Source: Patescibacteria group bacterium
GTDB lineage: Bacteria; Patescibacteriota; Microgenomatia; Levybacterales; UBA12049
DNA length: 64,000 bases
Reading direction: 5' to 3'
Assembly: GCA_026004395.1 (NCBI GenBank)
Contig: BPJB01000001.1
Location: 584,910-648,909, forward strand
Below, one piece after another: positions 12,281-42,264 of the stretch. Within the stretch, counting starts at the first letter, position 1. Every line of letters starts with the position of its first letter. A program made the translations under genes and the position numbers. The notes under the pieces were generated by a model. It saw only the letters and a list, made by a program, of their open reading frames with translations. It was not told the origin of the DNA and made no database searches.

Positions 12281-14356
12281 ATGGGTAAAGAAAATTTACG
12301 AGGAGAAAGTACAAAACCTCAAGACTTACTTCATGAAGGTCCCAAACTAACTCATCGTTTTTATGAAAGCATCAACATCTATCTTCAAGATGCACAACGC
12401 AACGGAGTATTACGTCCTCATCAACGTGATGTTTTCGAAAGCTTTCAACGGTTTTTTCAAGAGGGCTATACAAGAGGTTTTATTGAATTACCAACTGGAA
12501 CAGGTAAGACTGTTTTATTTGTTGAATTATCTAAAGCATTATTGAACACCGATCCTAGTCTTCCTCGACCCAAAATACTAGTCGTAACACCTACAAAAGA
12601 TCTGGTTCAGCAAATAATGGGTAGAACTGGAGAAAAAGGATATGGGAAATTTGCCCCTGAGTTAAAAGTTGGATCCTTTTTCAGTGATACACCAGATAAA
12701 GAAAAAACAGAAGAAGCTCTAGATATGTATGATGTAGTAGTCACAACATATAACTCTTTCTCTATTCTTAATAAAAGAAATGAATATCGCCCAATCACAG
12801 ATACAGATAAACAACTACTCTTGCAAGAGTATCAGTCTTCCAGAATTTCAGAATATATAGACAAAGAAGAAATACATCACCTTGTAAGTAGTATTAAATA
12901 TATTCCAACAGGCAGAAATTTATTGAATAAATTTGATGTGTTTATCTTGGATGAAGCACATCATACTTTAGGTGTTAAAACCGGGAGCATAGTTAACTCT
13001 CTGCCTCCAAATAAAGTAATTCTTGGATTCACTGCAACACCTGATGCTAGCCAACAAAAAAAATTAATTCATTACCTTCCTGAAAAAATACATTCTCTTG
13101 AACTAAATGAAGCGATATGGCTGGGATTATTAGCACCTATCGTACCGATTGGAATAAAAAGTGGTATCCACATTCGAGGTTCAAACCTCTACGACGACTC
13201 AGGAGACTTTATTGATAGTAGAATCAGATATTTAGCAGAGGACCCTAAAAGAAATAGACTTATCATAGAAGCAGCTAAATCCTTAACACAACATGGTATT
13301 GGTACAGTTATTTCATGTATTGCAGGAAATGAAGCTTGGCATGCAAGATACTTAGCTGAAAAACTTGAAAGAGAAGGAGTCCGAGCTGTTGCTGTACATA
13401 GAGGTGTTCCTTCACAAGAACGTCAGGAAATATACCAACAATTTGAAAAAGGTGAAATTGATGTACTTACTTTTATTGGTGTACTAAGTGAGGGTTGGGA
13501 TAGTTACAGAGCAAAAGCTATGATTGGAGCTAGACCTACTCGATCGATAATCTTTTCAAAACAAAGAGTTGGACGTATAACTAGACCCGGCGGAATCGCT
13601 TTTGCAATTGACATTTGGGATGAGTATGAAGATAAAAATCCTGCGATTAATGTAGCAGACATATTGAACGAAGGAGATATACCATTAGGTAGTACAGTAG
13701 GAATAGCAGAAGATAGAGGAATTATCCAGCAGGTAATTGCATCTTTGACAGAAACTACACCCTTAATGACTGTATTACCAAGTAATTATAAAAACTATGA
13801 AGAATTATTATCTGATTTAGATGTACTTAATAAAGGTGTTCTTGTAAGTTATGACCGCAAACAAACTCCGGAATGGGCTATAGCGTCACGAATAACTTCA
13901 ACATATTCAGGAGTAACAGATGAAATTTTCGCAAAAATTGAAGAACTAAAGGGAATAAAGATCAGTAAAAAACTTGCGAGACAGGGTAATTCAATCAGAA
14001 CAGTATATAGTGTAAACCAAGCTAAAGACTTACTCTACAAATTACCAAAAATTGATCCTCGTAAATACTTCATAGATGAAAAAGGAGTTAAAAGAATCTC
14101 ACCTGAAGGCCTAGTAGTATTATTTGGTAAAAGATATCCTAATTTAAATCTAGAAATTGTTCAAGAGCAACTTGAAAAAATTGAAGATCAATTAGATTGG
14201 ATACCTGCTTGCTATCAATTAACAAGAGAAGGGTCACAATATAGGAATTATAAGGTAATTAAAATATACAATGCTGAACAAAAAACAATTGATCTTCTTA
14301 ATCAGGCACTATCGGAATATTTTCAACAAACTTTATTGGATAAAAGGCAAATATAG
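12281..14356 (+). CDS. Superfamily-2 DEAH-box helicase (ResIII-like N-lobe plus helicase C-lobe) with an unassigned C-terminal extension of about 250 aa.
   Basis: Motif I is LPTGTGKTV, Ia is LVVTPTKDL, II is DEAHH, III is TATP, and VI is QRVGRITRP. The C-terminal extension (aa about 445-691) carries no recognised motif. Confidence 0.8.
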   Translation: MGKENLRGESTKPQDLLHEGPKLTHRFYESINIYLQDAQRNGVLRPHQRDVFESFQRFFQEGYTRGFIELPTGTGKTVLFVELSKALLNTDPSLPRPKILVVTPTKDLVQQIMGRTGEKGYGKFAPELKVGSFFSDTPDKEKTEEALDMYDVVVTTYNSFSILNKRNEYRPITDTDKQLLLQEYQSSRISEYIDKEEIHHLVSSIKYIPTGRNLLNKFDVFILDEAHHTLGVKTGSIVNSLPPNKVILGFTATPDASQQKKLIHYLPEKIHSLELNEAIWLGLLAPIVPIGIKSGIHIRGSNLYDDSGDFIDSRIRYLAEDPKRNRLIIEAAKSLTQHGIGTVISCIAGNEAWHARYLAEKLEREGVRAVAVHRGVPSQERQEIYQQFEKGEIDVLTFIGVLSEGWDSYRAKAMIGARPTRSIIFSKQRVGRITRPGGIAFAIDIWDEYEDKNPAINVADILNEGDIPLGSTVGIAEDRGIIQQVIASLTETTPLMTVLPSNYKNYEELLSDLDVLNKGVLVSYDRKQTPEWAIASRITSTYSGVTDEIFAKIEELKGIKISKKLARQGNSIRTVYSVNQAKDLLYKLPKIDPRKYFIDEKGVKRISPEGLVVLFGKRYPNLNLEIVQEQLEKIEDQLDWIPACYQLTREGSQYRNYKVIKIYNAEQKTIDLLNQALSEYFQQTLLDKRQI

Positions 14357-14460
14357 AATTTGATAAAAGATTAGATATTAGATAGATATTAGACAATTTA
14401 ATTAAGGAAGGTCGAAAAAGTATATGACTTATACATTGCCTAGATTGAATATAATATGAT

Positions 14461-14934
14461 ATGGAACAATATAAAGAACATAAACACAGAGAAGTACAAC
14501 AAACTTATGAACAAAAGGGTATATCAGAGCTAAATCAACTGCTAAAGAACCCAACGTTGCAGGAACGATTTATCGCAGTTCAGACAGCACCTCAACAGGA
14601 ACAGTTATCAACTGTATATAAGGAAATCGACAAGACCGTAGAGCAGAGAATAAAACCACTTATAGAAGATCAGGCAGCAACTGCACTTGGATTAACTAGC
14701 ATAGAAGAAGGACGAAAATATGGCAAGAAATGGGGAGAAGCCTTACGTGCTATCTCGGAAATAGAAATAAATTTAATAAATGGTGAAAAAATGAGAATGC
14801 CATTAGATCAAGCAAGAGAATACTTTAGAAATCAACTTGAAAATGAGTTTGCAGCTCGAATATCAGAAGCACAAGAGGCTTTGTCCAATTCTGTAATAGC
14901 TAAGAAAAAAAATTTTAGCAAGTTTAGAACTTGA
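14461..14934 (+). CDS. Hypothetical protein (157 aa, predicted helical).
   Basis: It is on the same strand as the cassette, 105 nt after the helicase. No motif was recognised. Confidence 0.4.
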   Translation: MEQYKEHKHREVQQTYEQKGISELNQLLKNPTLQERFIAVQTAPQQEQLSTVYKEIDKTVEQRIKPLIEDQAATALGLTSIEEGRKYGKKWGEALRAISEIEINLINGEKMRMPLDQAREYFRNQLENEFAARISEAQEALSNSVIAKKKNFSKFRT

Positions 14935-14974
14935 GCTTAGTAATAGAAAAAACGATCCACAATTACTCGATGCA

Positions 14975-15439
14975 ATGGGAGTTTGGGGTAGATCGCCAGA
15001 TTCATCAGGAGATCTTGGAGTTAATGATCAAGGATACCACGCAGGAGTAATTCATTACTTTGAGTACAGAGCCGATGCGGAAAAGAATGGCAGATACAAA
15101 AACACTGAGGGTGAGATAAGTATTGATGGTTTTATTAAATTTTCCAATCGTCTAAGAAGTTTCATAGATAATCCCAATCCCCAAAACAACGCTGAAGTTA
15201 AAAACGCCACCATTATTGAGGACGAGCAAGGTAATAGAAGGTTATATGTCTTAACAGATAAAGGTGAATTTATTGTTGGTTTTGAGAACGCACAAAATCA
15301 GGAGCCTATGCGAGTAATTACCATTATCCCAGGAAGAAATGACAAAGATTATGCAAATGCTGTTAATACTGAACTTGAAGGAAAAAATGACAGAAATAGA
15401 CTAAACAAATTACATGGCGCAAGACGTATCATCAGTTGA
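14975..15439 (+). CDS. Hypothetical protein (154 aa, beta-rich). It is the last gene of the cassette.
   Basis: It begins 41 nt after the previous gene. No recognisable motif is present. The sequence HYFEYRADAEKNGRYKNTEGEISIDG...YVLTDKGEFIVGF suggests a compact globular domain. Confidence 0.4.
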   Translation: MGVWGRSPDSSGDLGVNDQGYHAGVIHYFEYRADAEKNGRYKNTEGEISIDGFIKFSNRLRSFIDNPNPQNNAEVKNATIIEDEQGNRRLYVLTDKGEFIVGFENAQNQEPMRVITIIPGRNDKDYANAVNTELEGKNDRNRLNKLHGARRIIS

Positions 15440-15635
15440 TATACATTATACTTCATATTTGAGCAAACACAACTCTTAAATACTATACTTGAGGATTAAC
15501 TCAAGAAAAGAGATTAATATAAAAACCAAAGCAAATGAACAAATCAATGTTAATTGTATTTTGGTTGGCTGTATATTGATTAAGGATAAAATATACCTTG
15601 CATTTCTTCAAAAAATATGTTTTGCTATAGATAGC

Positions 15636-15735
15636 ATACCGAGAGGCCGTTTTGGCCCGGCAACCGAGAGTATTACGGTGCCATTGCAGCAATGCATATG
15701 TGCCAGTGAAAACTGGAAATACTTAAGGCCTCTCG
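15636..15735 (+). promoter_or_regulatory. SAM-responsive riboswitch (SAM-I/SAM-IV-like core) in the metK leader.
   Basis: The P1 arms are gagaggcc (15641) and ggcctctc (15728). The conserved core strings GGCCCGGCAACC and GGUGCCAUUGCAGC are present, as is the P4-like hairpin ccagtGAAAactgg. The 3' P1 strand overlaps the 5' arm of the downstream terminator, so mutually exclusive folds are possible. It sits immediately upstream of metK. Confidence 0.6.
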
Positions 15736-15752
15736 TATGGAGAGGTTTTTTT
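15727..15752 (+). terminator. Intrinsic terminator (expression platform of the SAM riboswitch).
   Basis: The hairpin cctctc-gtatg-gagagg is followed by TTTTTTT and ends 2 nt before the metK ATG. Confidence 0.65.
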
Positions 15753-15753
15753 A

Positions 15754-16860
15754 ATGAATTCATTTACATTTACCTCAGAGTCTGTTTGTGCAGGACATCC
15801 TGACAAGATCTGCGATCAAGTCAGCGATGCTATTGTAGATGCAATTCTTCAACAAGATCCATTTGGAAGAGTCGCAGTTGAGACAGTGGCTGCCAAAAAT
15901 CGTTTGATTATCGCAGGTGAGGTATCCACCACAGCCGTTGTAAACTACGAAAAAATTGCTCGAGACTTGATTAAAAGTCTTGGCTACCTTGATCCTGAAT
16001 ATGGTTTTTCTTATCTTGTGCCGATAGATATTTATATTCATGAACAATCCGCTGAAATTGCGTGCGGAGTTAAGAAAAAGGGTGCAGGAGATCAAGGCAT
16101 GATGTTTGGATTTGCCTGTAAAGAAACAGAAAATCTTATGCCTCTTCCTATATCTTTGGCACATGCTCTAACCCAAGGTATTGATAAAGCCCGAGAGACA
16201 AAATCTATACCTTATCTTAGACCGGATGGTAAAAGCCAAGTAACTGTTGCGTACCAAAATAACAAACCAACAAGAGTAACATCTGTCGTTCTTGCTGTAC
16301 CTCACGATGAAAATGTATCTCTTGATGATGTTAAAAAAGAATTGTATGTAAAAGTAGTTTCTCCTGTGCTCCATACATATGGATATTCGATAACTGAAGA
16401 TAAATTAATTGTGAATGGCACAGGCATATGGCATAGAGGGGGACCTGCTTCAGACACAGGGCTTACAGGACGAAAGATAGTCGTTGATACCTACGGAGGA
16501 TACTCAAGAGTAGGTGGCGGAGCATTTAGCGGTAAAGATCCAACAAAGGTTGACAGATCAGGAGCTTATGCTGCACGCTTCCTTGCAAAGAATATAGTTG
16601 CTGCAGGACTTGCTGACAAAGTTGAGGTGAGACTTGCATACTTTATTGGAGGTAGGAAGCCAATTATGCAAGAGGTGGAGACATTTGGTACAGAAAAGAC
16701 ATCGCCAAGATGTATCCGTGATTTTATGCTCAATTTGCTAGATACCTCTGTAGAAGGAATTCTTGAAGGCTTAAACTTACAAAGACCCATCTACCTTCCA
16801 ACAGCTACTTATGGTCATTTCGGAAGAGATAATTTTACGTGGGAGAAGGTAATAAAATAA
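15754..16860 (+). CDS. metK: S-adenosylmethionine synthetase.
   Basis: The N-terminus contains GHPDKICDQVSDAIVDAIL, and the GAGDQG and GGGAFSGKDPTKVDRSGAY loops are present. The length is 368 aa. Confidence 0.95.
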   Translation: MNSFTFTSESVCAGHPDKICDQVSDAIVDAILQQDPFGRVAVETVAAKNRLIIAGEVSTTAVVNYEKIARDLIKSLGYLDPEYGFSYLVPIDIYIHEQSAEIACGVKKKGAGDQGMMFGFACKETENLMPLPISLAHALTQGIDKARETKSIPYLRPDGKSQVTVAYQNNKPTRVTSVVLAVPHDENVSLDDVKKELYVKVVSPVLHTYGYSITEDKLIVNGTGIWHRGGPASDTGLTGRKIVVDTYGGYSRVGGGAFSGKDPTKVDRSGAYAARFLAKNIVAAGLADKVEVRLAYFIGGRKPIMQEVETFGTEKTSPRCIRDFMLNLLDTSVEGILEGLNLQRPIYLPTATYGHFGRDNFTWEKVIK

Positions 16861-17127
16861 ATAGTTTTACCCACCTTAGACGATCCATTAGACGAGTAGA
16901 ATAATCACCTATATTAGGGTGATTCATTGGATCACTCGTCTCCATTGGAATCACTTGTCCCTCTATCATCCAGAGATTTCTCACTATTTTCTTCGGAGTT
17001 GCCGCTTTTCAGATCAGATGTATCGTAGTCTGGATCCATAGTATCTACACCTCCACTATCAAATGTGGAAAGCATAGGGGATCTAGACAAGAATTACATG
17101 AAGAATGCGTAAGAAATAAAAAATAAA

Positions 17128-17328
17128 CTACTTTTGTTTTAACACTTGCCCAAGGAGTTTGTATGTTTCTTCCATTGCTTGTCTTGTTGTCATCCCTTGA
17201 GATTTAGCTGCTTCCTCAAAAGTCTTGGTAGTAATTGATTTTCCGTTGGGATCAAAACCTGCATGACCAACACCCATATCATCATCAGGAAGACCACAAC
17301 CACAGTTAAAACACATATTATAAATCAC
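17128..17328 (-). CDS. Small Cys-containing hypothetical protein (66 aa).
   Basis: It contains a CFNCGCG motif. No family was recognised. Confidence 0.3.
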   Translation of the reverse strand: MIYNMCFNCGCGLPDDDMGVGHAGFDPNGKSITTKTFEEAAKSQGMTTRQAMEETYKLLGQVLKQK

Positions 17329-17384
17329 CTCCTTTTAGAATAATTTTATATTAGTTATCATAACTCAAACAATTTTAAAACAAA

Positions 17385-18074
17385 CTAAGGCCGCCACCCT
17401 TCATACGTAAAATAATTTTCTACCTGCCCAATACAAACATACGGCGTATCCTCTCTCATATTCTCAGCATGCCCAGAAGAGGCAATCCAAATGTCAACAA
17501 CTTTGGTATAATCAGATATCATTGCAATATTCTCAGTTACCTTTGTATAGGAAGGATAGGGAAGAGAATTATCTTCAATTCTTCGCCTAAAACCATCATG
17601 ATTAAAGGAACGCGATATCTCCTCTGCTCTTAGTTGAGCAAAGTTACAAGTATATGGATCAGTCTGAACTTTATAAAGGCCTTGAGAAACTCGAAATTCA
17701 TTAATTTTTTGCAGTATATAATCTTTGATATTTTCTGATTTACCTATTAGAGAAGATGTGGGAGTAACTGATGTTGTGACTGCAGTCGGAGTAACTGAGG
17801 GTTTGTAAACAGGAGTAGATACAAGAGTGGGTGTTGGAATTGACGAAGAAATGTTACGTGAATTAGGTAAAGTATGAGGTGTTGGAGAAAGTTTTTTATT
17901 CTGCACAGAATCTCGAGAGTAGATGACTTTTGGAGGATTATTTTGAGAAGCTAAAGAAACATGGGATTTAAATAGAATTGTACGAGAAATTACTGAAAAA
18001 AAATAAAAAATCAATACTGCAATGACAATAATCGGCAGGACAAAAAGAAGTACCTTCCGCATGAATAAATACAA
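17385..18074 (-). CDS. Membrane-anchored CAP/SCP/PR-1-like (YkwD-type) domain protein with a Ser/Thr/Pro-rich linker.
   Basis: There is an N-terminal TM segment and then an STP-rich linker. The C-terminal domain shows F..LRAEEISRSFNHDG ... SSGHAENMREDTPYVCIG, matching the CAP motif pattern (H...GEN..., S.GH..N.L). Confidence 0.45.
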   Translation of the reverse strand: MYLFMRKVLLFVLPIIVIAVLIFYFFSVISRTILFKSHVSLASQNNPPKVIYSRDSVQNKKLSPTPHTLPNSRNISSSIPTPTLVSTPVYKPSVTPTAVTTSVTPTSSLIGKSENIKDYILQKINEFRVSQGLYKVQTDPYTCNFAQLRAEEISRSFNHDGFRRRIEDNSLPYPSYTKVTENIAMISDYTKVVDIWIASSGHAENMREDTPYVCIGQVENYFTYEGWRP

Positions 18075-18148
18075 TACTTTTTCTTATGAATTTTGTCAAT
18101 CACTTACTCAAAGGCGTATATTAATGCAAAGATTTACAACTGAGGCTA

Positions 18149-18598
18149 TCAACTCTCCCGAATGCGTTCTTCTGCTTCATCAATCAGCTTTGCTGTATTG
18201 AGCTCATCATTTTCATATCCTTCGCCACTGTTATCCTTGTCATAATCTAGACCATAGCGACGAGCCATTTCACCAACGTCCTCTCCTGTTGGAGCTGGCT
18301 CTGATCCCCCCTCAGGATCTTGCTGACCCAAACTTTCAGGACTCATATAAGGAGCCTCAGAAGATAAAGTATCTCGCTCTGCATCAGCAATATCTTCATT
18401 ACCTTCTATCATCAATTCATCTGAATATCCATCCTCATCCACTTTGATGTTTTCATCAATCTTAATTGTATCTTTTTCCTCTATTTCAGGTATTGTTGCT
18501 TGTTTCTTCTTATCCATACTAGTGAATAGACTAAACAGTATACGTAAGAAAAAAGATAAAAATTTGTAAAAATCCTGAAAGAGAGTTATTGCCTCCAA
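18149..18598 (-). CDS. Acidic hypothetical protein (149 aa).
   Basis: It is Asp/Glu-rich and overlaps the upstream zinc-ribbon gene by 13 nt. Confidence 0.3.
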   Translation of the reverse strand: MEAITLFQDFYKFLSFFLRILFSLFTSMDKKKQATIPEIEEKDTIKIDENIKVDEDGYSDELMIEGNEDIADAERDTLSSEAPYMSPESLGQQDPEGGSEPAPTGEDVGEMARRYGLDYDKDNSGEGYENDELNTAKLIDEAEERIRES

Positions 18599-18858
18599 CG
18601 TTTAAGTTGAGGAATAATAATTTGTGATAATGAGCGTGCTTTGCTTTCATTCATTTTAAGACCATTTACCATATACGATGTTGAGCTCTCAATCATCTGA
18701 GAAAGAGTCATATTAGGATCAATAAATAAACCATTTTGAAAACAGTATTTGCAATATTCGGAATTTTCACTGCCATCACTATTTGTTCCATACTGATCAG
18801 GATGGAAAAGTGGAATTCCACAACTTTGACAACGATTTTTCAAAGATTTATTATCCAT
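18586..18858 (-). CDS. Putative zinc-ribbon domain protein.
   Basis: CQSCGIPL...YCKYCFQNG gives two CxxC pairs of the Zn-ribbon type in a 90-aa protein. Confidence 0.4.
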   Translation of the reverse strand: MDNKSLKNRCQSCGIPLFHPDQYGTNSDGSENSEYCKYCFQNGLFIDPNMTLSQMIESSTSYMVNGLKMNESKARSLSQIIIPQLKRWRQ

Positions 18859-18881
18859 GAATATAATTTTAATATATCAAA

Positions 18882-20030
18882 TCAAGAAACGAGATTCTTA
18901 TTTTCTTTAATTAAAAAAAGCAGCAAAAATGCAATAATTGACAGAATTAGTGAATATATAAAAGGTACCGACTGTCCTACATACTCCCATAATAATCCTG
19001 CGATAAAAGATGACGGAAGTCCCATCAAGCCAATAATCATTTGAAATCCGCCAAGCGTACTTGCCAAATACTCTTGTGGAGCAAGCTCAGCTGCTAAAGC
19101 TTTCTGTACAGGATCAAGAGATGCTTTATGAAGTCCATACAAAATAAATGCACCAATAATACCAACAAAATTAGAAAATAAAAACATAATTGCTACAACT
19201 CCAATCCAGAGAAGAAAAGATACATGCAAAATCGTTCTTCTTCCAAATTTATCAGATAATTTGCCAAAGGGAAGAGAAAACATCGCCGCAACTAATGTAA
19301 ATACAAGATAGAGCAGAGGTATAGCAATTAATGTAAAACCTTTATTTTCAGCATAAACAAGAAGAAAAGAGTAACTAAATGTACCTAAGGAGAAAATAGC
19401 AGAGAGAAATGTATATAATCTCAAATCAGAAGTGAAATCGCTCAGTCGTATTCCACGAAAAACATCTGAAGATACTGGGCGCTCTTTTATGAATATAATA
19501 ATAAGTAATGCGGCAACCAAAGAAGGAAATGCGGCAAATAAAAAAAGATTCCTGTATCCAAAACTTTTAATAAATAAAATCGCAATCAGAATACCAACAA
19601 CAGCACCTAAATTATCCATCGCTCTAAGTATTCCAAAATTCCGTCCTCTGTTCGACTTATCAGAAATTTCAGATATCATTGCATCTCTTGGAGTACTTCT
19701 GATCTTACCTGATCTATCTAGTATTCTAAATGGAATTATCCAAACCCATGTAGGAGAAAAAGCGTATCCGATACGAGCAACACCTCCAAACAAATATCCT
19801 AGAAAGACAAAAATCTTTCTTTTTTTTAATCTATCTGATAGATATCCAGAAACAGCCTGTGAGAGTGAAACAAGTGCATCTCCTATCCCGTCAATTAATC
19901 CCAGAACTGCCATATTCGCACCTAGAACATTAGTAATAAAAAGTGGCCATACTGAAAACACTATATCTGAACCAACATCATGAAGAAATGACGCAGCGGA
20001 AAAAACAAATAAACCTTTTTTTGTACTCAT
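18882..20030 (-). CDS. MFS transporter.
   Basis: There are about 12 predicted TM segments. An MFS-type loop motif GRLSDKFGRR is present between TM2 and TM3. Confidence 0.75.
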   Translation of the reverse strand: MSTKKGLFVFSAASFLHDVGSDIVFSVWPLFITNVLGANMAVLGLIDGIGDALVSLSQAVSGYLSDRLKKRKIFVFLGYLFGGVARIGYAFSPTWVWIIPFRILDRSGKIRSTPRDAMISEISDKSNRGRNFGILRAMDNLGAVVGILIAILFIKSFGYRNLFLFAAFPSLVAALLIIIFIKERPVSSDVFRGIRLSDFTSDLRLYTFLSAIFSLGTFSYSFLLVYAENKGFTLIAIPLLYLVFTLVAAMFSLPFGKLSDKFGRRTILHVSFLLWIGVVAIMFLFSNFVGIIGAFILYGLHKASLDPVQKALAAELAPQEYLASTLGGFQMIIGLMGLPSSFIAGLLWEYVGQSVPFIYSLILSIIAFLLLFLIKENKNLVS

Positions 20031-20121
20031 AAATCGTTTATAAAGAATCTACTCTTAGTTAGCAACTACTTTTTTAATATTTTTAATATAATTTCTTACC
20101 TCTTCAATCACTCAACGGTTT

Positions 20122-21105
20122 TTGTTAGAATGTAATTCTCATCATATGGAAATATTTACCATTTTGCTGATAATTTTCGGGCTGTCACTTTTTGAGGTAA
20201 TCACAAGCATTGATAATGCAGTTATCAATGCAGAAGTTCTCTCAGGAATGAGCAAAAAAGCTCAAAGATGGTTTCTACTGTGGGGATTTCTTTTTGCTGT
20301 TTTTATTGTTCGAGGATTTTTACCATTTGTTATTATCTTCCTTGCCAACCCACAACTAGGTCCTATCGGAGTACTTGGGGCAGCATTTAATAATGATCCG
20401 CATGTAGCAGAAGCAATTGAACAATCAGCACCTTTTTTGCTGCTAGGTGGAGGAGTTTTTTTAACATTTCTTTTCTTCCACTGGCTTTTTCTTGAACCCA
20501 AAAATTTTGGACTACGCGGAGAAAGATTTTTTCAAGCTCAAGGAGCATGGTTTTTTGCCGTTGTTTCAATTTTACTGACTATAATTGTCTGGCTAGCACT
20601 TAATACTCATCCTATGTTGGCTTTTAGTGCTGTTGTTGGATCAACTGCTTTTTTTATAATTCATGGATTTCGTCAATTTGCAGAAGAACAAGAAAAAAAA
20701 CTTATCAGTGGCAATATGTCAGATATCAGCAAAATTGCCTATCTAGAAGTCCTTGACTCTACATTTTCAATTGATGGTGTAATAGGAGCATTTGCTTTTA
20801 CTTTTTCAGTTCCATTTATTCTTATTGGCAATGGTTTAGGCGCACTGGTACTAAGAAAATTAACAGTAAGTAACATTGAACGCATCAAAAGATACAAATA
20901 TCTTAAAAATGGCGCTATGTATTCTATCCTTTTCTTAGGCATAATTATGATACTTGATAGTTTTGGAGCACATATCCCTCACTGGCTTTCACCTGTCATT
21001 ACATTTGGGACTGTTGGATATTTTTTTCATAAATCGCGCTTGGATATGGAAAAAATTCAAGAAGCTCTTGAACCCTTACCTACTACCAAAAATAAAAAAA
21101 ATTAA
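20122..21105 (+). CDS. TerC/DUF475-family integral membrane protein (start more likely the ATG at 20146).
   Basis: MEIFTILLIIFGLSLFEVITSIDNAVINAEVL carries the SIDNA motif typical of TerC/DUF475. There are multiple TM segments. Confidence 0.5.
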   Translation: MLECNSHHMEIFTILLIIFGLSLFEVITSIDNAVINAEVLSGMSKKAQRWFLLWGFLFAVFIVRGFLPFVIIFLANPQLGPIGVLGAAFNNDPHVAEAIEQSAPFLLLGGGVFLTFLFFHWLFLEPKNFGLRGERFFQAQGAWFFAVVSILLTIIVWLALNTHPMLAFSAVVGSTAFFIIHGFRQFAEEQEKKLISGNMSDISKIAYLEVLDSTFSIDGVIGAFAFTFSVPFILIGNGLGALVLRKLTVSNIERIKRYKYLKNGAMYSILFLGIIMILDSFGAHIPHWLSPVITFGTVGYFFHKSRLDMEKIQEALEPLPTTKNKKN

Positions 21106-21190
21106 ATATCTTGTCTTAATTCTTACAAAAAGAGTTTATAGTAAAATAGATTATCTTAAGAGATTAATCTTCTCTTTTAAACAGTCTTAA

Positions 21191-21994
21191 ATGAAACCCT
21201 GGATTATTTTGATTGCGATAATCTTAAGTAGTATTGCAATAATTGCAGGAATAATATATATAATTATTCAGAAGAAACCTGATTATGTTTCTAGTAAAAA
21301 ACCTATGGATACACAAAATCTAACAGAAGACACAATTAAGATTACTCCCATATCTCATGCTACTATGGTACTTAACATGGCAGGTCAAGTAATCTATGTT
21401 GATCCAGTAGGAGGAGAACAATCTTTTGCAGTACAGGAAGCACCTGATCTTATCCTTATAACTGATATTCATTTTGATCATTTTGACAACCCGACGCTTG
21501 AGAAAGTCTCCAAGAAGGATACTGTTCTTATAGTTCCCAAAGCAGTCGCTGAGAGAATGTCCAAAAAAATTGCAGGAGAGACAGTAATTCTTGCCAATGG
21601 TGAAAAAACAGAGCAGAAAGGAATTCTGATTGAAGCAATCCCAATGTACAATATCCCAGAATCCCCTCAAGCATTTCATACAAAAGGAAGAGGAAATGGA
21701 TATGTGCTAGAAGCCAAAGGAGAGAGGGTATATATCGCTGGCGATACCAGTAATATTCCTGAAATGAGAGCACTCAAAAATATTGATATTGCCTTTATAC
21801 CAATGAATCTTCCCTATACTATGACTGTTGAAGAAGCAGCTGAAGCAGTCGTGGCATTTAAACCCAAGATAGTTCATCCTTATCACTATCGCGGGGAGAA
21901 GGGATTTTCTGATATTAATAAATTCAAAGAATTAGTTAATAAGGCTGACCCTTCTATCAAAGTAGAACTCCTCAATTTCTATCCAAATCAATAA
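21191..21994 (+). CDS. Membrane-anchored MBL-fold metallo-hydrolase.
   Basis: There is an N-terminal TM segment. The metal-binding motif reads LILITDIHFDHFD (HxHxDH-like). A later Asp/His occurs in IAGDTS ... HPYHY. Confidence 0.65.
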   Translation: MKPWIILIAIILSSIAIIAGIIYIIIQKKPDYVSSKKPMDTQNLTEDTIKITPISHATMVLNMAGQVIYVDPVGGEQSFAVQEAPDLILITDIHFDHFDNPTLEKVSKKDTVLIVPKAVAERMSKKIAGETVILANGEKTEQKGILIEAIPMYNIPESPQAFHTKGRGNGYVLEAKGERVYIAGDTSNIPEMRALKNIDIAFIPMNLPYTMTVEEAAEAVVAFKPKIVHPYHYRGEKGFSDINKFKELVNKADPSIKVELLNFYPNQ

Positions 21995-22169
21995 TTAAAA
22001 TTTTCTCTCACTTTATTTAATAATCGTTAAAACAGAATAAGACAAAATCCTGAGAAAAATCTATAAATTAACTTTTTTGGATTTTGATTTAAATTTTGAT
22101 TAGCAAAATCTGGGATTTCAAGCCTGAGTATGGTACAATTGCATTATTAAACACTCAATTTTCACTTAA

Positions 22170-22243
22170 TGCGGGATCGTCTAATGGTAGGACAGCAGAC
22201 TTTGGATCTGCTTATCATGGTTCGAATCCATGTCCCGCAGCCA
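22170..22243 (+). tRNA. tRNA-Gln (anticodon UUG), with the CCA encoded.
   Basis: The acceptor stem is tgcggga/tcccgca. The anticodon stem-loop is gcaga-cTTTGga-tctgc. The T arm is catgg-ttcgaat-ccatg. Confidence 0.7.
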
Positions 22244-22487
22244 AGTAGAACGAGAAGGTCGCAGAGATCCTTTTGGGTTCAATTATCGTGCAATTCGTTA
22301 GGTTCGAAAGTTTTATCTTCCAATTCTCCAAATTAGCAACTTTCGAACCGTTTGGTTCTGACGCTCGAAATACACCTTTGAACGGGAAACTCTCCAAGCT
22401 AACTCAAATAAGTATGGAGGCTAATTAGTCCTCCCAGAACTACTGCAGATTCCTGCAATAAATGCCCAACGAGCTTGTGAAGATAAA

Positions 22488-23031
22488 TTAAGATGAAATT
22501 CCTAAAACTTTTGGTTTATATAGTCTACGCAAAGGATTACCACTATTATCAAGTTTTGGTGAACAATAAAATTGACAAGTGTGCAACTCTTTAATAAACA
22601 TAACTGTTCTATTTGTTTCTATTTCTATTTCCCAACCTGGCAATTTTTGCAAAATTCTGGCAATCTTTCTCTTCTGTGACAACAGTTCACTCCTATTATA
22701 ACTAATCTCTTCTCTTATTCATTTGGGAAGGCTGATTCCCATGCGTTACTAATTCTGATAGCAGTCTTCTCATAAGACCAATCTTCTGGCTCTTGCCAAA
22801 ACTCTCGCTTGCTAGTATCCCAAGTATATCTAGTATCACTTAACCATCCGCTTGTAACACTACATGTTAAATTATAGTAGTGAAGACGCAAGAACACAGA
22901 GCTAAGCCAGCAGTAATACCTTCGCCCTGAAGGGTTGCAAAAACTCCATCACCGCTAACTTTCAATTTATCAAACTGAGGTTTTATCCTATCTTGATCCT
23001 TTAGTGTCGGTTTGTATATATCAGGTCTCAT
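22488..23031 (-). pseudogene. queE: Degraded queE (7-carboxy-7-deazaguanine synthase, radical SAM). It is fragmented across at least three frames and has lost the CxxxCxxC cluster cysteines.
   Basis: Minus-strand translation from the ATG at 23031 (which overlaps the queD stop as ATGA) gives MRPDIYKPTLKDQDRIKPQF...VFATLQGEGITAG, a QueE-like N-terminus, then a stop. In the next frame, FLRLHYYNLTCSVTSGWLSDTRYTWD aligns with the QueE segment FVRLxGCNLRCxxCDTxY, but with C->Y substitutions and a 6-aa insertion in place of the third Cys. Further fragments are 22715..22897 and 22488..22682. Confidence 0.5.
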
Positions 23032-23498
23032 AATCTTCTTCTTAACTTTTTAGCATCTTTCCGTGTGTAAATAGCCACACTTGTGGGTGTCTCCAACAAT
23101 TTGATTGAGCGAAGCCTCAAGTCAGTTTTGTACTTATCTTTTATCTGACCATCAAGTTGGTTGAATATCCATGCGGCAATATTTTCAGAAGTAGTCACTA
23201 AAGGAACAATAATATTTTTTTTATCAATATTCTCTTTAAAAAATCTTACGAGAGCTTTGTCTTTACTCCATACCATGAATCCATGATCTAATTCGTTGTG
23301 GATATGTTCTGTTGCAATTTTTCTAATATCACTAAAATCAATAACCATGCCTTCATCAGAAATTCCCTCTATTCTTACCAAATCACCCTCAACACATATC
23401 TCAGCTTTATATCTATAACAGTGGAAATTTCTACACTGCGAGTGGTGATTAGTCACTCGATGTCCCATATCCCACTGTATTTCTTTTATGACCTTCAT
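23028..23498 (-). CDS. queD: 6-carboxytetrahydropterin synthase (QueD/PTPS family), with a non-canonical metal motif.
   Basis: WDMGHRV...CRNFHCYRYKAEI ... ELDHGF matches the PTPS pattern. However, the canonical CxxxHGH motif reads CRNFHCY here: the Gly is replaced by Cys and the second His by Tyr. Confidence 0.55.
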   Translation of the reverse strand: MKVIKEIQWDMGHRVTNHHSQCRNFHCYRYKAEICVEGDLVRIEGISDEGMVIDFSDIRKIATEHIHNELDHGFMVWSKDKALVRFFKENIDKKNIIVPLVTTSENIAAWIFNQLDGQIKDKYKTDLRLRSIKLLETPTSVAIYTRKDAKKLRRRL

Positions 23499-23544
23499 AT
23501 CATTTATCTTTTTGCTTATTAATCTCTCTATAAAATTGATTTGT

Positions 23545-24081
23545 TAATTTAGAATCCTTTTTAGTAGTCCTCTAATTATTGTAGTTCTCGTAATACAATC
23601 GCTTTTTCTCACGCCCCTCATACTCATGCAAAGATGCTCTGCCTCAATTGTGACCGCTAATCCTCTAGGGTTTAGTTTTTTTCCAACACATCGGCTATCT
23701 GATTGGCAAGATTTTCTTGGGTCTGAAGTCTGTGACTTAAAATTTCTGTTAATCTAACAAATTTAGAAAGCCCAAGTACCCTCCCGTTGGGAACATAACC
23801 AATATGAATTTTCCCAAAAATGGAATCATGTGATGTTCACAAAGACTATAAAATCTTATATTTGTTAGTGTAATTAAGTCCTTGTAACCGTTGCTTTGAA
23901 TGTTTTGAAAAACAACTTTTGGATCTTGAAGATAATCACTAAGCAATTCTTCATACATCCTATAAACTCTCTGGAGAGTTTCAACCAAACCCTCTCTAGA
24001 AATATCCTCACCGAAGAAACTCAACAATTGGGGAACAAAGTTGGTGATTAGTTCTTTTCGAGCACTACTATTGTTAGACAT
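23545..24081 (-). pseudogene. folE: GTP cyclohydrolase I (folE) interrupted by two single-base homopolymer frameshifts.
   Basis: Frame 1 reads ...[11 protein letters not shown] then terminates (track ORF 23749..24165). Frame 3 continues as [48 protein letters not shown] then stops. Frame 2 continues as [25 protein letters not shown]... to a stop at 23545. Each of these segments matches conserved FolE blocks (CEHH, PNGKVxGLSK, RLQxQERLTxQIA, NPRGxAVxxEAEHxCMxMRG). The frame breaks coincide with the A5 run at 23816..23820 and the T7 run at 23676..23682 on the plus strand. Confidence 0.6.
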
Positions 24082-24174
24082 TGTTGGGTTTTTGTCTTGC
24101 CACGGCCTACACTTTTTATTGTACAGGACGCCCAACGACCGTTCCAATAACTGTATTGTAACCAAAACCTATAT

Positions 24175-24528
24175 TTAGTCAAAATTAACAGTTTTAACCT
24201 CAATAGAGCAACCTTTTTGTTTAATAAATATGTGTTTTAATGAACTTTCAAATTCTTTCTTTGTGCGGTTAACACAAATTGATAAATCGAGATTGACAAA
24301 ACCAATTTCGGGGTAAGTAGGGATAACAAGATGAGATTGGGAAAGTATATAGACAAGAGTAATTCCTGTTGGCTTAAAAATATAAGAAACCTTTTTAACT
24401 ACCTTTAAATCTAAATCATAAATGATGTTGTCTGCCAACTTTTCAACAAACACTAAAGAGTTATCAAATGGTTTTATTTTTATAAGCGCAACAAATTGTC
24501 TAATCAATGGTGTAGATTGGTTTATCAT
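24175..24528 (-). CDS. Pyruvoyl-dependent S-adenosylmethionine decarboxylase proenzyme (SpeH-like, small archaeal/bacterial type).
   Basis: GITLVYILSQSHLVIPTYPEIGFVNLDLSIC corresponds to the AdoMetDC core GVTxVxLLxESHISIHTWPExGYAAVDVFTCG, including the self-cleaving Ser in S-H. The length is 117 aa. Confidence 0.5.
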   Translation of the reverse strand: MINQSTPLIRQFVALIKIKPFDNSLVFVEKLADNIIYDLDLKVVKKVSYIFKPTGITLVYILSQSHLVIPTYPEIGFVNLDLSICVNRTKKEFESSLKHIFIKQKGCSIEVKTVNFD

Positions 24529-25489
24529 AGTTGCCTCGTATTATGGGATTCGCCATGGGTGTAACCTCAGCAACATATAACGAGCTTGCGCTTCCCACAG
24601 ATTCAGCCCCTTCATATCTATTGAATCTATCAAATATCCATCTAAGCATTAGTCCCATACCTGTAATTGCATTCTGAATTGGCAAAAACCTCTCCTTAGC
24701 TCTATCACTATTACCGTAACAAAAGTAAATCCTTGCCGCCCTGTTTTCTTGGTCTATCGCGTCTAATGCCCTTGAAACAAAAAGCTGTATTCCTTCTGGT
24801 GTATAAGGTGGGTCCGTAAACACTGTGTCGAATTTGCCTTTCAATTCAGCGGGGATTGGTTCTCTTAAATCGTGCTTTACTCTTTTGATTCTCAGGTTAA
24901 GTTTATCTGAAATAGCTCCTATGTTGTCCAAAATTCTCTCATCGATGTCTACCACTGTTATATCTTGTGCCGATTTAAGGTTTGCGGTCGCGACAGAAGT
25001 AAAGTCGTCATCACCTAAAAACAAGATTTGTTTATCCTTAACATCTCCAAAGAAGTCAAGAAGGGCAACTCTTCTTCCTATAGTTTCAATTGTAGCTGTA
25101 AGCTGGTCAAGACTTCTTTTGGGAACTGTTCTTCTATCCTTGTAACGGGAAAGTAAAGTAACAGATTGCTCATAAACTTCACTTGTGGTTAAAGTTCTCA
25201 GGAGGTCTTCTTCTACCAAAAAATTGTTGTCATACAATCTACTCACTCTTTCAGCTATATCTTTTCTCAAAGAAGTCTCCTTAGATGGATGATTTAAATA
25301 GGCAGATAGAGCTTTTTTTACCTGGTTTAGCGCATTTCTGGACACTCCTACCATCCGAACTAGTTCGTTATTTTCAATAGTTTCACCCCTGGAAAGATGC
25401 CAAAATACATCCAAGACTTTCTTAATTGGCACTCCCGTTTGTTTTGAGACTTCCAAAAATTCTGAATACATCTTTTCCTTTTCACCCAT
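24500..25489 (-). CDS. DUF43/BpsA-like aminopropyltransferase (branched-chain polyamine synthase family) with an N-terminal winged-helix domain.
   Basis: The LFLGDDDFTSVA and VFTDPPYTPEG motifs (DUF43 signature) are present. It overlaps the SpeH-like gene and is co-directional with it, a classic dcAdoMet supply and use pair. Confidence 0.5.
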   Translation of the reverse strand: MGEKEKMYSEFLEVSKQTGVPIKKVLDVFWHLSRGETIENNELVRMVGVSRNALNQVKKALSAYLNHPSKETSLRKDIAERVSRLYDNNFLVEEDLLRTLTTSEVYEQSVTLLSRYKDRRTVPKRSLDQLTATIETIGRRVALLDFFGDVKDKQILFLGDDDFTSVATANLKSAQDITVVDIDERILDNIGAISDKLNLRIKRVKHDLREPIPAELKGKFDTVFTDPPYTPEGIQLFVSRALDAIDQENRAARIYFCYGNSDRAKERFLPIQNAITGMGLMLRWIFDRFNRYEGAESVGSASSLYVAEVTPMANPIIRGNYDKPIYTID

Positions 25490-27501: not shown

Positions 27502-27754
27502 AATTATATCATCGTAAAGAATGTAATGTTTTTACGAATTTTTCTGCCACTTAGCAAATTCTGAACAAAGATATGAAGATTTAAGCTAAATATTAAAACA
27601 TTAAATCTTGACTGTATTTCATTATAGCAAAATTTAATACTTCATCAAAGAATTATTCTTGAGAAGATAACAAAAAATTTATGAAACTCGTTTAGTAGAA
27701 AATAAACTTAAATAAACTTATAAGGCACAATCAATAGCGCGGTATATAAATAAG

Positions 27755-28120: not shown

Positions 28121-28559
28121 GCATCGCTTGATTATAGCTAAAAAAGGAGACAAGAAGCAATATTTTAGCATTCTAAGCTAATCTTATTTTACCAAAGGAC
28201 AGAGCAAATTACATCACAAATCTAATATAAGATTTAACATTTTTGTTATAATTTTGCATATGCTACTTAGCGTATTGGTGAAGCCAGCTCAAAAATATCC
28301 CGTAATTGCCTGGAATGGAAGTTCAATCGTTATAAAGCTGAAATCACCCCCCAAAGATGGAGCAGTAAATAAAGAACTATAGAAAAACTTGCAGATTTTT
28401 TCGATATTCCCAAAGGAAAAGTAGATATTCTCTCAGGAGCAACAAGTCGCAACAAACGAGTGATAATAGATCTCGATGAAGCAACAATACTAAAAAACTC
28501 TCTACCATCCACGCAAACAAATAATTTTCTAAAAACTAAAAAGGATACTCTGATGAATA

Positions 28560-31753: not shown

Positions 31754-32865
31754 AGAATGGAATATTATAGGTTATTAAGTAATTTTAGTCAAATTATTAA
31801 AGAAACTTATTACATAAATTTCCATATAACTATAAGATATTTTATATATCATAACCAATGAATAAGATTTAAAACAACGGTTTTTATCTGTATTATCTAA
31901 ATATTTGTTTTCAATTCAAAGTATCTTAGGTGTTATCATATTTGCGAAAGCAATAGCGACTTCGGAATTTATTAATATATATTAGAATTAGATCAAAAAG
32001 GAGATATACTAGTTATTTTTTTTGATCTCAAAAATTGAAATTGAAAAAAGTGACTTTTATTATGAACTCATTTAGTCTACTTGTTTATGATTAGCAAGAT
32101 AAAGTTTGTCTTTTTATTGAATTGAATATTTATTCCACTTTCCAAAATCTTTTCCAATTTATCTATATATCATTTTCATAAAACTAGCCAAAAACCAGAA
32201 ATCTTCTCTCTTTCAACTGAAGGTAAAAGGGTACTACTAGTTTTTGGCTAATAATTTAATTAAAGTAAAAAACAAAAAAAATAAAATTAATCAAGTTAAA
32301 AAACTTTTTTTAATAATTTGCTTTTTCTAGAATTAATATGTTAGAGATATCTTTTCTACCATGGAAAATATAAAAAATTTAAAATTTATAGAACTAAAAC
32401 AATAACTCAAGTTTGAACTTAGCTCATGTTGTATTAGCGAAATTTGAATAACTGCAGCCAACTGTTGATAATGGCGGTCAAATCACAAGAAGTAATATAT
32501 ACAACGTATTTCTACAATCAAGCTCGAACCTATTTTAGCAATAATTGCTGACATAAACCAATCACTCCCATTGCCGCCAGCCGACATGCGGCAACCTGCC
32601 TCGCAGAAAACTTTTTCTACTGCTCTGATTATGCGCACGACAACAAGAAATTCTCTAAAGAAAGTTTTTCTGTTCTGCTCTGCGCTGAATTATGAGTGTC
32701 GTGGCTTTACGCTTTCGGCTTGGCTGGATGGTTTTTTACGGTTATTGTATTTTTCTTATCCTTACCACACACTCCCGTCGCGAAAAAGATTAAGAAACTC
32801 CAAGTGTATAAAATACTCGTTGTGCTTTCTCTTCTTGTTTGTTATCATTTGAATGTATATTCAAA

Positions 32866-33175
32866 TATGAAAAAGGAAGAACTCAAAAAGGGACTCAAAA
32901 ATAAGCAAGCCATTCTCGCATGTGCGCGAGAATTCAACATGGTCGGCGACCCGACGCGCCTCAAAATCTGTTATCTCCTGTGCCGACACAAAGAGCTTTC
33001 GGTCAGCGAGATAGCAGAGGTTGTTGGAGTCTCAATTTCTGCTGTTTCGCATACACTGCGCAAGCTAAAAAAGGCGAATATGGTGGAAAGCCACCGGAAA
33101 TCACGCACCGTTTATTACCAACTAAAAAATAGAGGTATTGTTAATATTCTTAGACAAAGATTTGCCAATTTATGA
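32866..33175 (+). CDS. ArsR/SmtB-family metalloregulator, the first gene of the mer island. The track ORF 32696 start is an artifactual upstream extension.
   Basis: The HTH reads MVGDPTRLKICYLLCRHKELSVSEIAEVVGVSISAVSHTLRKLKKANMVES. The ATG at 32866 follows the local GC rise. Confidence 0.7.
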
Positions 33176-33534
33176 ACACACCAGAATCAAGGGTACAGCT
33201 AAAAAGAGTATATGACGATTTTGAAAGTACAGATGGATATAGAGTTCTTATTGACAGATTGTGGCCACGAGGCATATCAAAACAAAAAGCAAAAATAAAC
33301 CTTTGGCTGAAAGATATCGCACCAAGCAACGAATTAAGAAAATGGTTTTCTCATGATCCCCAAAAATGGGAAGAATTTACAAATCGTTATGAGGAGGAGT
33401 TGAAAGAAAAAGAAGATATTGTAAACTCTCTTAAAGAAATTATTGCCAAAGAAAAAATTGTCACTTTATTATTTTCTGCCTCTGATGAAAAACATAACAA
33501 CGCTGTCGCTTTGAAGAAAATATTAAAACTATGA
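33172..33534 (+). CDS. DUF488 (YeaO-like) protein.
   Basis: RVLIDRLWPRGISKQKAKINLWLKDIAPSNELRKWFSHDPQKWEEF matches the DUF488 consensus. The start overlaps the arsR stop. Confidence 0.7.
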   Translation: MNTPESRVQLKRVYDDFESTDGYRVLIDRLWPRGISKQKAKINLWLKDIAPSNELRKWFSHDPQKWEEFTNRYEEELKEKEDIVNSLKEIIAKEKIVTLLFSASDEKHNNAVALKKILKL

Positions 33535-34934
33535 AGACATTTGAACTTATTATTATAGGCGGAGGAGCGGGCGCATTTGCAGCTGCAATCAGAGCCAACG
33601 AACTGAAAGCCAAAACCGCTATGATTAACTCAGGCCTTCCATGGGGCGGTACCTGCGTCAATGTAGGCTGTGTTCCCTCAAAAACGCTTCTTTATGCTAG
33701 TGAAGTTTTATATCACGCAAAACATCATGGTGTAGCTGGTATTGAGCTTGAAATACAAAATTTTGATTTTCAAAAGGTAGTTGAGGATGAACTTTCACTT
33801 GTAGAAAAATTGCGCAATGAAAAATACGAAAAAGTACTGAAAAATTTAGAATATGTAACTGCGATTGAAGGCAGGGCAAAATTCGTTTCTCAGAATGAAG
33901 TAGAGGTAAATGGCGAAAAGTTGAGAGCTGAAAAATTTATCATTGCTGCTGGCTCTACTGCCAATGTTTCGCAAATTGAAGGAATACACGAAGTTGGATT
34001 TATTACACACATTGAAGCACTGCGACTTAATTATCAGCCAAAAGAATTAATTGTAATTGGAGCAGGGCCACTGGGATTAGAATTTGCCCAAATGTTTTCC
34101 CGCTTTGGCACAAAGGTAACAATTTTACAGCGCGGCGATTCAATTTTATCATATGCTGAAAAAGAACTCACTGATCGTCTATCAGAAATACTTTCAAAAG
34201 AAGGAATAACAATCAAGACACATGTTGAAGTAAAAAGCGCTCGCATAGAAGATACAAAAAAAGTTGTTTCCTATCATATAGGCAAATCGCAGGAGGAAGT
34301 ATCTGCAGACGAAATACTTGTGGCTACAGGTAAAACACCCAACACGCATGGACTGGGACTCGATATTGTTGAAGTTGAGGTGAATAAAACTTATGCAATT
34401 ATTGTTAATCAATACTTCCAAACCTCCAATCCGAACATCTTTGCTGTTGGCGATATCACCAATTTGCCACTACGCCTTGAAACAACTGCCGGACGAGAAG
34501 GCACGCTTGCCGCTGAAAACGCACTCAAAGGTACAACACTTTCAATTGACTATCACACCGTACCCTATACGATTTTTACCGACCCTCAGATTGCCGGAGT
34601 TGGCTTTACAGAGGAGAAGCTGATTAAACAAATAGGTGTTTGTGACTGTCGTACGACTTCATTTGCAGATGTACCAAAGGCAATTATCATGCGCCGCACA
34701 GAAGGTCTCATCAAAATGGTGATTCATCCCCAGACAAAGCAAATTTTGGGTGTCCATATTCTCGCACCAAACGCTGGAGAACTTATTGCCGAAGCGATGA
34801 TGCTCATAAAAAACAAAAATACAATTGATGATGTTGTAAACTCTTTGCCAATGTTTCCGACGCTTTCTGAAGCGATCAAAATTACCGCGCTGTCTTTTTC
34901 AAAAGACATTTCAAAATTAAGCTGCTGCATATGA
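33531..34934 (+). CDS. merA: Mercuric reductase core (MerA without the N-terminal NmerA/HMA domain).
   Basis: The FAD site is IIIGGGAGAF. The redox-active disulfide motif GGTCVNVGCVPSK matches MerA exactly. The C-terminus has a vicinal Cys pair (...KLSCCI), the MerA hallmark. The gene is followed by merT and merP. Confidence 0.75.
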   Translation: MKTFELIIIGGGAGAFAAAIRANELKAKTAMINSGLPWGGTCVNVGCVPSKTLLYASEVLYHAKHHGVAGIELEIQNFDFQKVVEDELSLVEKLRNEKYEKVLKNLEYVTAIEGRAKFVSQNEVEVNGEKLRAEKFIIAAGSTANVSQIEGIHEVGFITHIEALRLNYQPKELIVIGAGPLGLEFAQMFSRFGTKVTILQRGDSILSYAEKELTDRLSEILSKEGITIKTHVEVKSARIEDTKKVVSYHIGKSQEEVSADEILVATGKTPNTHGLGLDIVEVEVNKTYAIIVNQYFQTSNPNIFAVGDITNLPLRLETTAGREGTLAAENALKGTTLSIDYHTVPYTIFTDPQIAGVGFTEEKLIKQIGVCDCRTTSFADVPKAIIMRRTEGLIKMVIHPQTKQILGVHILAPNAGELIAEAMMLIKNKNTIDDVVNSLPMFPTLSEAIKITALSFSKDISKLSCCI

Positions 34935-35221
34935 AAAAGAGAATAATCAATTTTAAGCACGCAATTCCGAAAGATATTGAGGAAATTTTAGCGGCATCAC
35001 CAAAATTAAAAGCTAAGTGGGATAATCTCACCCAGTTAGCTCAAAATGAGTGGATTTGCTATGTAACAATAGTCAAGAATAGTAAAACCCGACAAAGACA
35101 CCTAAAACGATTAGAAGAAGATTTACTCAACGGCAAAAAGCGGCCATGTTGCTGGCCTGGTTGTCCTCACCGCAATCAAAATACCCAGAAATGGTTTTTA
35201 AAAACGTACAAAGATAACTAA
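34931..35221 (+). CDS. Small YdeI/OmdA-like protein (weak assignment) located inside the mer operon.
   Basis: The C-terminal motif RPCCWPGCPHR is present. Its position between merA and merT suggests an accessory role. The assignment rests on recall only. Confidence 0.3.
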   Translation: MKKRIINFKHAIPKDIEEILAASPKLKAKWDNLTQLAQNEWICYVTIVKNSKTRQRHLKRLEEDLLNGKKRPCCWPGCPHRNQNTQKWFLKTYKDN

Positions 35222-35263
35222 TTTTGACAACTAAAAATTTATTATCTAAGATGCAAGGATGAG

Positions 35264-35635
35264 ATGAAAGATAACGATAAAACATTTCTTAAAATCGGCA
35301 TTATAGGAGCATTTATCGCATCACTCTGTTGTCTTGGTCCTCTTATTTTGATTGCACTTGGAGTAGGAACTGCGGGAAGTGTGCTCTCAATCGGTTACAA
35401 CAAACAGTATTTCCTCGCTGGCTCGCTTCTGTTCTTTATCGCTGCCACATTGCTTTACCTCAGAAAGAGACAAAGGGAAATTTGTGAATGCGGGGATGGA
35501 TCAGGCAAAATCGATAATAAGAAAATTGGAGTACAAGTTCTGATTTCCCTTTGCGCGATGATTTTGCTGTATCTCTTACTTACATTCTTGCTGGTGCCAC
35601 TGCTTGCACCGCTGGTTTATAAATACCTTTACTAA
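35264..35635 (+). CDS. merT: Mercuric ion transport protein MerT.
   Basis: The first-TM motif IASLCCLGPLILIALG compares with ASACCLGPLVLIALG in Tn501 MerT. A second Cys pair occurs in a cytoplasmic loop (CECGDG). There are 3 TM segments. Confidence 0.7.
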   Translation: MKDNDKTFLKIGIIGAFIASLCCLGPLILIALGVGTAGSVLSIGYNKQYFLAGSLLFFIAATLLYLRKRQREICECGDGSGKIDNKKIGVQVLISLCAMILLYLLLTFLLVPLLAPLVYKYLY

Positions 35636-35638
35636 AAT

Positions 35639-42235: not shown

Positions 42236-42264
42236 TTGACAGAAAATAACAATTTTAATAAAAT
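42236..42264 (+). promoter_or_regulatory. Sigma70-like promoter (TTGACA, 17 nt, TAAAAT) driving leader copy 1.
   Basis: TTGACA is at 42236..42241 and TAAAAT at 42259..42264. Confidence 0.55.

Follow-up and report, generated by a model that had tools for sequence, protein, structure and literature searches.

The minus strand of the window (the whole 64-kb stretch of DNA that was analyzed) carries a very probable pseudogene of folE, the gene for GTP cyclohydrolase I, at 23500..24081, with queD and a remnant of queE directly downstream; the three genes belong to an operon for preQ0, a precursor of queuosine. The folE assignment draws on the reading frames, a Pfam match, identity to orthologues, and tblastn. 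The gene starts at an ATG at 24081 and ends at a TGA at 23500-23502. A sequence-only reading of the stretch had placed the boundaries at 24165 and near 23545; however, the former is merely the TTG start of the longest open reading frame (ORF), and the latter is a premature TAA brought about by the third of the deletions described below.

When 23500-24200 was read in three frames, the folE blocks of the minus strand, including the CEHH block, proved to be spread over all three, as the sequence-only reading had observed. The first frame opens at the ATG at 24081 (MSNNSS...CEHHMIPF), the third ends in ...RGLLK, and the final 20 residues return to the first frame before the stop. By tblastn, the pieces likewise fall in three frames, with the C-terminal 20 residues in another frame. 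Adding one base at each of three sites restores a protein of 194 aa rather than the 178 aa previously suggested. The repaired protein matches the Pfam family GTP_cyclohydroI (PF01227) at profile positions 3-178 of 179 (E = 3.5e-65, 219 bits) and aligns end to end with two 194-aa orthologues (P0001 and P0002; up to 85% identity, 100% coverage); its identity as FolE is not due to chance. The orthologue itself exceeds the 181.6-bit cut-off of NCBIfam TIGR00063, scoring 201.5 bits, and also passes NF006826. C81, H84, and C152, which form invariant alignment columns, are all kept in the CEHH and HLCM blocks of the window's FolE; we take the conserved cysteines and histidine of these blocks to be the catalytic zinc ligands. 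Three 1-nt deletions nevertheless leave the coding sequence in three frames with premature stops, and, since no open frame remains, we regard the gene as a FolE family member by sequence that is nonetheless a pseudogene.

Related FolE proteins in the databases are labeled Patescibacteria or Gottesmanbacteria. A search of 5.8 billion database proteins revealed no intact FolE allele above 85% identity. A scan of genome contigs with the repaired FolE returned, among the matches listed, relatives at 41-49% and no sibling genome, and when metagenome contigs were scanned with a 35-mer common to the window and its nearest relative, that relative (FWPU01006498.1) was the sole match.

Three one-base deletions in folE

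To locate the breaks, we aligned the folE DNA with four intact orthologous loci, among which L001, L002, and L003 represent the same allele and L086 and L085 are more distant. The DNA alignments show one base missing at each of three minus-strand sites. At site 1 (23815..23824), orthologues have ATTCCCTTTTTTGGG (T6), whereas the window has ATTCCATTTTTGGG (T5), corresponding to the plus-strand A5 at 23816-23820. At site 2 (23675..23682), GAAGAAAATTTA or close variants in the orthologues contrast with GAAAAAAA-CTA in the window (plus-strand T7 at 23676-23682), and the old frame meets a TAA directly after the shift. These are the two frame switches, and the two single-base indels, that the sequence-only reading had recognized, and both are real features of the alignments; the third, at site 3 (23556..23562; coding strand CTAAAAA-GGAT), had been overlooked. 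There, the orthologues have AAAAAGGG (L001) or AAAAAAGG (L086) and the window AAAAAGG. All three lesions are thus one-base deletions at or beside short homopolymers.

The expectation of a T8 run at 23676-23682 did not hold up. In all three orthologues, site 2 reads GA(A/G)GA(A/G)AATTTA (encoding E-E-N-L), without any 8-run. A G-to-A change gave rise to the A7 run of the window, and the base lost may equally derive from the adjacent T3, judging from the alignment, so T8 is only one among several possible repairs. None of the relatives is frameshifted at any of the three sites. The relatives so compared include no sibling above 85% protein identity.

The remainder of the preQ0 operon

The gene downstream of folE, queD (6-carboxytetrahydropterin synthase; 23028..23498, minus strand), is an open ORF of 156 aa that matches Pfam PTPS. 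At 23415-23420 (minus), however, it encodes CRNFHCY (G27C, H28Y), where three of three orthologues have CRNLHGH. The signature motif of QueD and PTPS-I is CxxxHGH (PMC5041015), and the C-RNF-H-C-Y of the window does not conform to it. The activity of queD has probably been lost, to judge by this motif, though an annotation pipeline would call the gene functional.

The queE gene (radical-SAM 7-carboxy-7-deazaguanine synthase) persists as a remnant at 22497..23031 on the minus strand, delimited by tblastn, tblastx, and alignments with the orthologues. It carries two 1-nt deletions outside A/T runs, at 22902/22903 (CACCC context) and 22690/22691 (GGAGGGG context), and a nonsense codon at 22715-22717 (CAA-to-TAA). 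Two conserved cysteines have been replaced, C53Y by a TGT-to-TAT change and C65S by TGT-to-AGT: the cysteine block, invariant in the three orthologues compared, is HYCNLTCGVPSGWLCDT, as opposed to HYYNLTCSVTSGWLSDT in the window. The GGEP motif is also damaged (TGGEPLL in the orthologues versus IG-ELLS). The conserved cysteine triad presumably provides the ligands of a [4Fe-4S] cluster, and GGEP is presumably the SAM-binding motif; the remnant retains neither the complete triad nor GGEP, the features by which a radical-SAM QueE would be recognized. The homologous part stops near 22497 (residue 179 of 260), so about the last 80 codons are gone. In agreement with this, tblastn with the L001 QueE recovered the remnant as pieces in three frames, none of which extends past residue 179, and tblastx similarity to all four relatives halts at 22497.

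Beyond this point lies a junction (22244..22496) of about 250 nt of unrelated sequence, without similarity to the relatives, where the continuation of the cluster is missing; it is adjoined by a tRNA-Gln gene (22170-22243). In the relatives, the gene order is bpsA, AdoMet decarboxylase, folE, queD, queE (260 aa), queC, a NodU-like carbamoyltransferase, a GT2 glycosyltransferase, SHMT, a gene for a 237-aa protein, and ksgA. The intact cluster has been kept in three separate lineages (L001-L003; L086/L087; and L085, which is CP055308.1, an 802,554-bp record), and on this ground we take it as the ancestral state. By their best NCBIfam matches, each of which scores under the curated cut-off, the relatives' proteins include a QueE relative (the 260-aa protein), QueC, and QueD. 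Queries from L001 for QueC, the NodU-like carbamoyltransferase, SHMT, the 237-aa protein, and KsgA had no tblastn match in the window, and the GT2 query gave only a weak match of 23% identity to a different glycosyltransferase at 5815-6360. Within the window, therefore, FolE, QueD, QueE, and QueC are not all encoded and intact, as the preQ0 pathway would demand. As read from the alignments, all three surviving pathway genes are damaged, mostly by changes beyond homopolymer miscounting.

The carbamoyltransferase and GT2 genes of the relatives lie directly after the preQ0 genes (L001 10001-15044; L085 1168-6215; L086 10001-15043). This linkage could mean that a modified 7-deazaguanine, and not simply queuosine, is the product. 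The flanking sequence retrieved around the relatives' clusters showed no tgt, queF, or dpdA.

On the other side of folE, bpsA and the AdoMet decarboxylase gene are intact directly upstream, with 84% and 70% protein identity to L001, respectively, and BpsA, the decarboxylase, and QueD of L001 each have a single full-length tblastn match in the window. The bpsA gene (329 aa, with a BpsA_C domain) and the small AdoMet decarboxylase gene occupy 24175-25489 (-) and overlap by 29 nt. Genes for branched-chain polyamine synthase are associated with thermophiles, and their presence here would fit a hot-spring origin of the reads.

Sequencing error and strain variation

A sequencing artifact would explain the state of folE if its three runs were each one base longer in the true genome, in which case folE would be intact at 194 aa. 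Every break consists of a single missing base at or beside a homopolymer, the data are PacBio HiFi, and the residual errors of that technology are mainly homopolymer indels. The retention of every conserved cysteine and histidine in the CEHH and HLCM blocks also speaks for this explanation, as does the low pairwise dN/dS of folE against L001 (0.18). The latter value lies within the range of the intact neighbors (0.06-0.35), from which folE is inseparable by this measure, pairwise dN/dS being too blunt to register recent inactivation. The low ratio indicates that most of the divergence of folE arose while the gene was constrained; this puts a bound on how old the inactivation can be, without contradicting pseudogene status. 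On the strength of these comparisons, the inactivation of folE is recent relative to the split from L001.

The distribution of the frameshifts stands against an artifact. The other ORFs in the window, totaling about 50 kb, contain 471 A/T runs of at least 5 nt and zero frameshifts, whereas three of the six such runs in folE coincide with a break; the chance that three of three errors would land in folE, weighted by homopolymers, is about 2e-6. A further broken gene, a DUF167 (YggU-like) pseudogene at 28261-28522 (+), is spread over three frames by 1-nt deletions at 28378/28379 (CTCA to CTA, a non-homopolymer site) and 28493/28494; the protein has 88 aa in the relative L001. The seven 1-nt frameshifts all fall within these three broken genes (folE, queE, and DUF167; 1.4 kb), for which a uniform error model gives P of about 1e-11, and relative to L001 all seven frameshifting indels are deletions. 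Every other gene in the window that matches a Pfam family does so at full length, including those for MetK, ThrRS, IF3, L20, PheS, PheT, TyrRS, RecG, PBP1, and DAHP synthase; for about 15 other ORFs without a family match, openness is the sole evidence of intactness. A hexamer frame-potential scan did flag other apparent frame changes, and we rejected these as candidates: most of the flagged junctions, together with other overlapping ORF pairs, were checked against Pfam, and the junctions so checked were boundaries of separate complete genes, a judgment that applies to ORFs with a Pfam match.

An independent assembly also argues against an artifact. Over 11,235 nt, window positions 13028-24262 agree at 100.000% identity with a Logan contig of run DRR290133, and this span covers folE, queD, and the queE remnant. 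DRR290133 is a PacBio HiFi metagenome (PMC11646566), and its reads come from a hot spring (bioRxiv 10.1101/2025.08.20.671380). Because the contig was built from what are probably the same reads, the identity excludes an artifact of the assembler or of polishing but not a systematic read error. A systematic miscount is further disfavored by the lack of an 8-run in the orthologues at site 2, by the finding that the pathway is already dead through lesions in queE and queD other than indel errors, and by the failure to find, in the protein search described above, an intact allele that a corrected sequence might resemble more closely than 85%. Where alignment columns show at least 95% conservation, FolE in the window also carries five private changes (P36L, G49D, K59Q, F61I, and T126A), the most among 58 aligned sequences, for which the median is 1; these changes are less conservative than those in the other sequences and speak for relaxed constraint in folE itself. 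Taken with the statistics above, we consider it very unlikely that the folE breaks are sequencing errors.

The sequence-only reading had likewise preferred real decay to homopolymer error. That conclusion is supported, although the argument offered for it, that the neighboring genes are intact, fails: queE is wrecked directly downstream, and queD has a broken signature motif. Real decay is instead supported because the neighbors are damaged, by substitutions, a nonsense codon, non-homopolymer deletions, and a large deletion.

Metagenome assemblies collapse strain variation, so the assembled allele might be a defective variant that coexists in the population with intact alleles of folE and queE. 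Among indexed assemblies, however, a single contig carried the window's queD; the protein database held no FolE of >85% identity; and the 35-mer scan of metagenome contigs matched the nearest relative only. We give even less credence to such heterogeneity than to sequencing error.

Recoding and read-through

The breaks could in principle be real and yet bypassed, with FolE produced by three -1 ribosomal frameshifts or by base-adding transcriptional slippage in the A/T runs. In the incoming frame, sites 1 and 2 do happen to fit the heptamer pattern X_XXY_YYZ, as G_GGA_AAA and A_AAA_AAC, respectively, with a stop after the second, and the remaining folE coding sequence is well preserved. Against this, site 3 has no canonical heptamer, and the folding of the 60 nt after each site does not surpass that of shuffled sequences (z = +0.8, +0.5, and +1.7 for sites 1-3), so that the combination of heptamer and stimulatory structure by which programmed -1 frameshifting is recognized is absent, as is its conservation: no relative is frameshifted, and none of the three sites is therefore a conserved recoding site. 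Efficient transcriptional slippage needs runs of about 9 or more, while those in folE are just 5 to 7 nt long. Moreover, three independent events would be required, making the yield the product of three small efficiencies, and the product would feed a pathway without queE and queC. We regard recoding as very unlikely. An alternative genetic code was rejected, as the breaks are changes of frame and not in-frame stops.

It is similarly hard to credit that the breaks are read through, with site 3 slipping on a single tRNA-Lys, to furnish a trickle of GTP cyclohydrolase I for a pterin need other than preQ0. If true, folE would represent a triple recoding event within one small gene.

Probable erosion of a truncated preQ0 operon

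In our assessment, folE is very probably a genuine, recent pseudogene in a preQ0 operon that presumably eroded under relaxed selection after the loss of its distal part. A deletion or rearrangement would have removed the cluster from the last third of queE onward, through ksgA. Loss from the 3' third of queE onward breaks the preQ0 pathway and would have ended the use for the 7,8-dihydroneopterin triphosphate and 6-carboxytetrahydropterin made at the locus; with the upstream enzymes useless, lesions could gather under relaxed selection. In folE, these would be the three 1-nt deletions at or next to short homopolymers, of the kind that replication slippage yields. The stump of queE would have acquired its two 1-nt deletions, its nonsense codon, and the loss of conserved cysteines by drift, and drift would likewise have cost queD its HGH motif. 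We infer this sequence of events, with the distal loss first and erosion afterward, from the present state of the genes. No FolE, QueE, or QueC activity is expected from the locus, given what remains of the genes, and the cell would presumably either live without 7-deazaguanine bases or obtain them by salvage.

A protein with DUF5660 and a short trigger factor are also encoded in the window. Together with the labels of the related FolE proteins, they suggest a small-genome bacterium of the candidate phyla radiation, and gene losses of this sort are commonplace in such bacteria. The phenomenon, with its small deletions in AT-rich runs, is ordinary pathway-level pseudogenization in a reduced genome, nothing new in kind. 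A literature search found no report joining pseudogenes, queuosine, and Patescibacteria.

Comparison with known systems places the locus accordingly. The full-length domain match, the 85% identity to intact orthologues, and the CEHH and HLCM blocks liken folE to type IA enzymes (PF01227; TIGR00063/NF006826), from which it differs in a frame broken three times and in the five private substitutions at highly conserved columns. The window shares the order folE-queD-queE with its relatives and with the bacterial preQ0 operon folE-queD-queE-queC, but it has no queC, only a truncated and mutated queE, and a queD without HGH; the relatives' own cluster departs from the textbook operon in being extended by the NodU-like carbamoyltransferase and the GT2 glycosyltransferase. 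Pathway-level pseudogenization is known from reduced and symbiotic genomes, for example Mycobacterium leprae and insect endosymbionts. The window resembles these in that several genes of one pathway bear multiple independent lesions, among them small deletions and nonsense and missense changes, while housekeeping genes are intact. It differs in that only three pseudogenes (folE, queE, and DUF167) were seen in 64 kb, which amounts to limited decay and not to genome-wide erosion. In insect endosymbionts, transcriptional slippage at poly(A) tracts rescues frameshifted genes, and the one-base deficits in A/T runs and the AT-rich genome (35% GC) recall that situation; the window's runs, however, are short (5 to 7 nt), would all three have to slip in series, and are not conserved, and the downstream pathway is missing.

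For annotation, the gene is best described as a folE pseudogene in a degraded preQ0 operon, neither repaired nor split into three hypothetical ORFs, and in metabolic reconstruction the queD ORF should not count as evidence for the synthesis of queuosine or 7-deazaguanine. The significance beyond annotation is slight. The locus provides a small, clean example of an operon whose remaining genes erode once one of its ends is lost, and it illustrates that frameshifts occurring in a cluster can be genuine in an assembly based on HiFi reads.

Other features of the window

A SAM-I/IV riboswitch at 15629-15732 (+), with 45.5 bits where the gathering score is 41.1, immediately precedes metK (15754-16860). 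A mercury-resistance-like cluster at 32696-36046 (+) encodes an ArsR-type regulator, DUF488, a MerA-like protein, OmdA, a MerT-like protein, and an HMA-domain protein; the MerA-like protein is a pyridine-nucleotide disulfide oxidoreductase of 467 aa. Between tRNA-Gly and tRNA-Phe, L001 has two genes, one of 224 aa and one of 220 aa with a transglycosylase domain (L001 3838-5239), whereas the same interval of the window (27502-27753) spans about 250 nt only, a difference in gene content that could reflect either a deletion in the window or an insertion in L001.

Long stretches without a convincing ORF, unusual for a compact genome, occur at 41300-42410, 31754-32695, and 7595-8292. Rfam gave no match at E <= 0.1 in the first two. 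Such stretches could contain further decayed genes or unknown RNAs. Across the 64 kb (35% GC), A/T homopolymers end abruptly at length 8, with 20 runs of 8 and none longer. The plus strand contains more A than T (21957 versus 19455), a skew that appears to track the coding strand.
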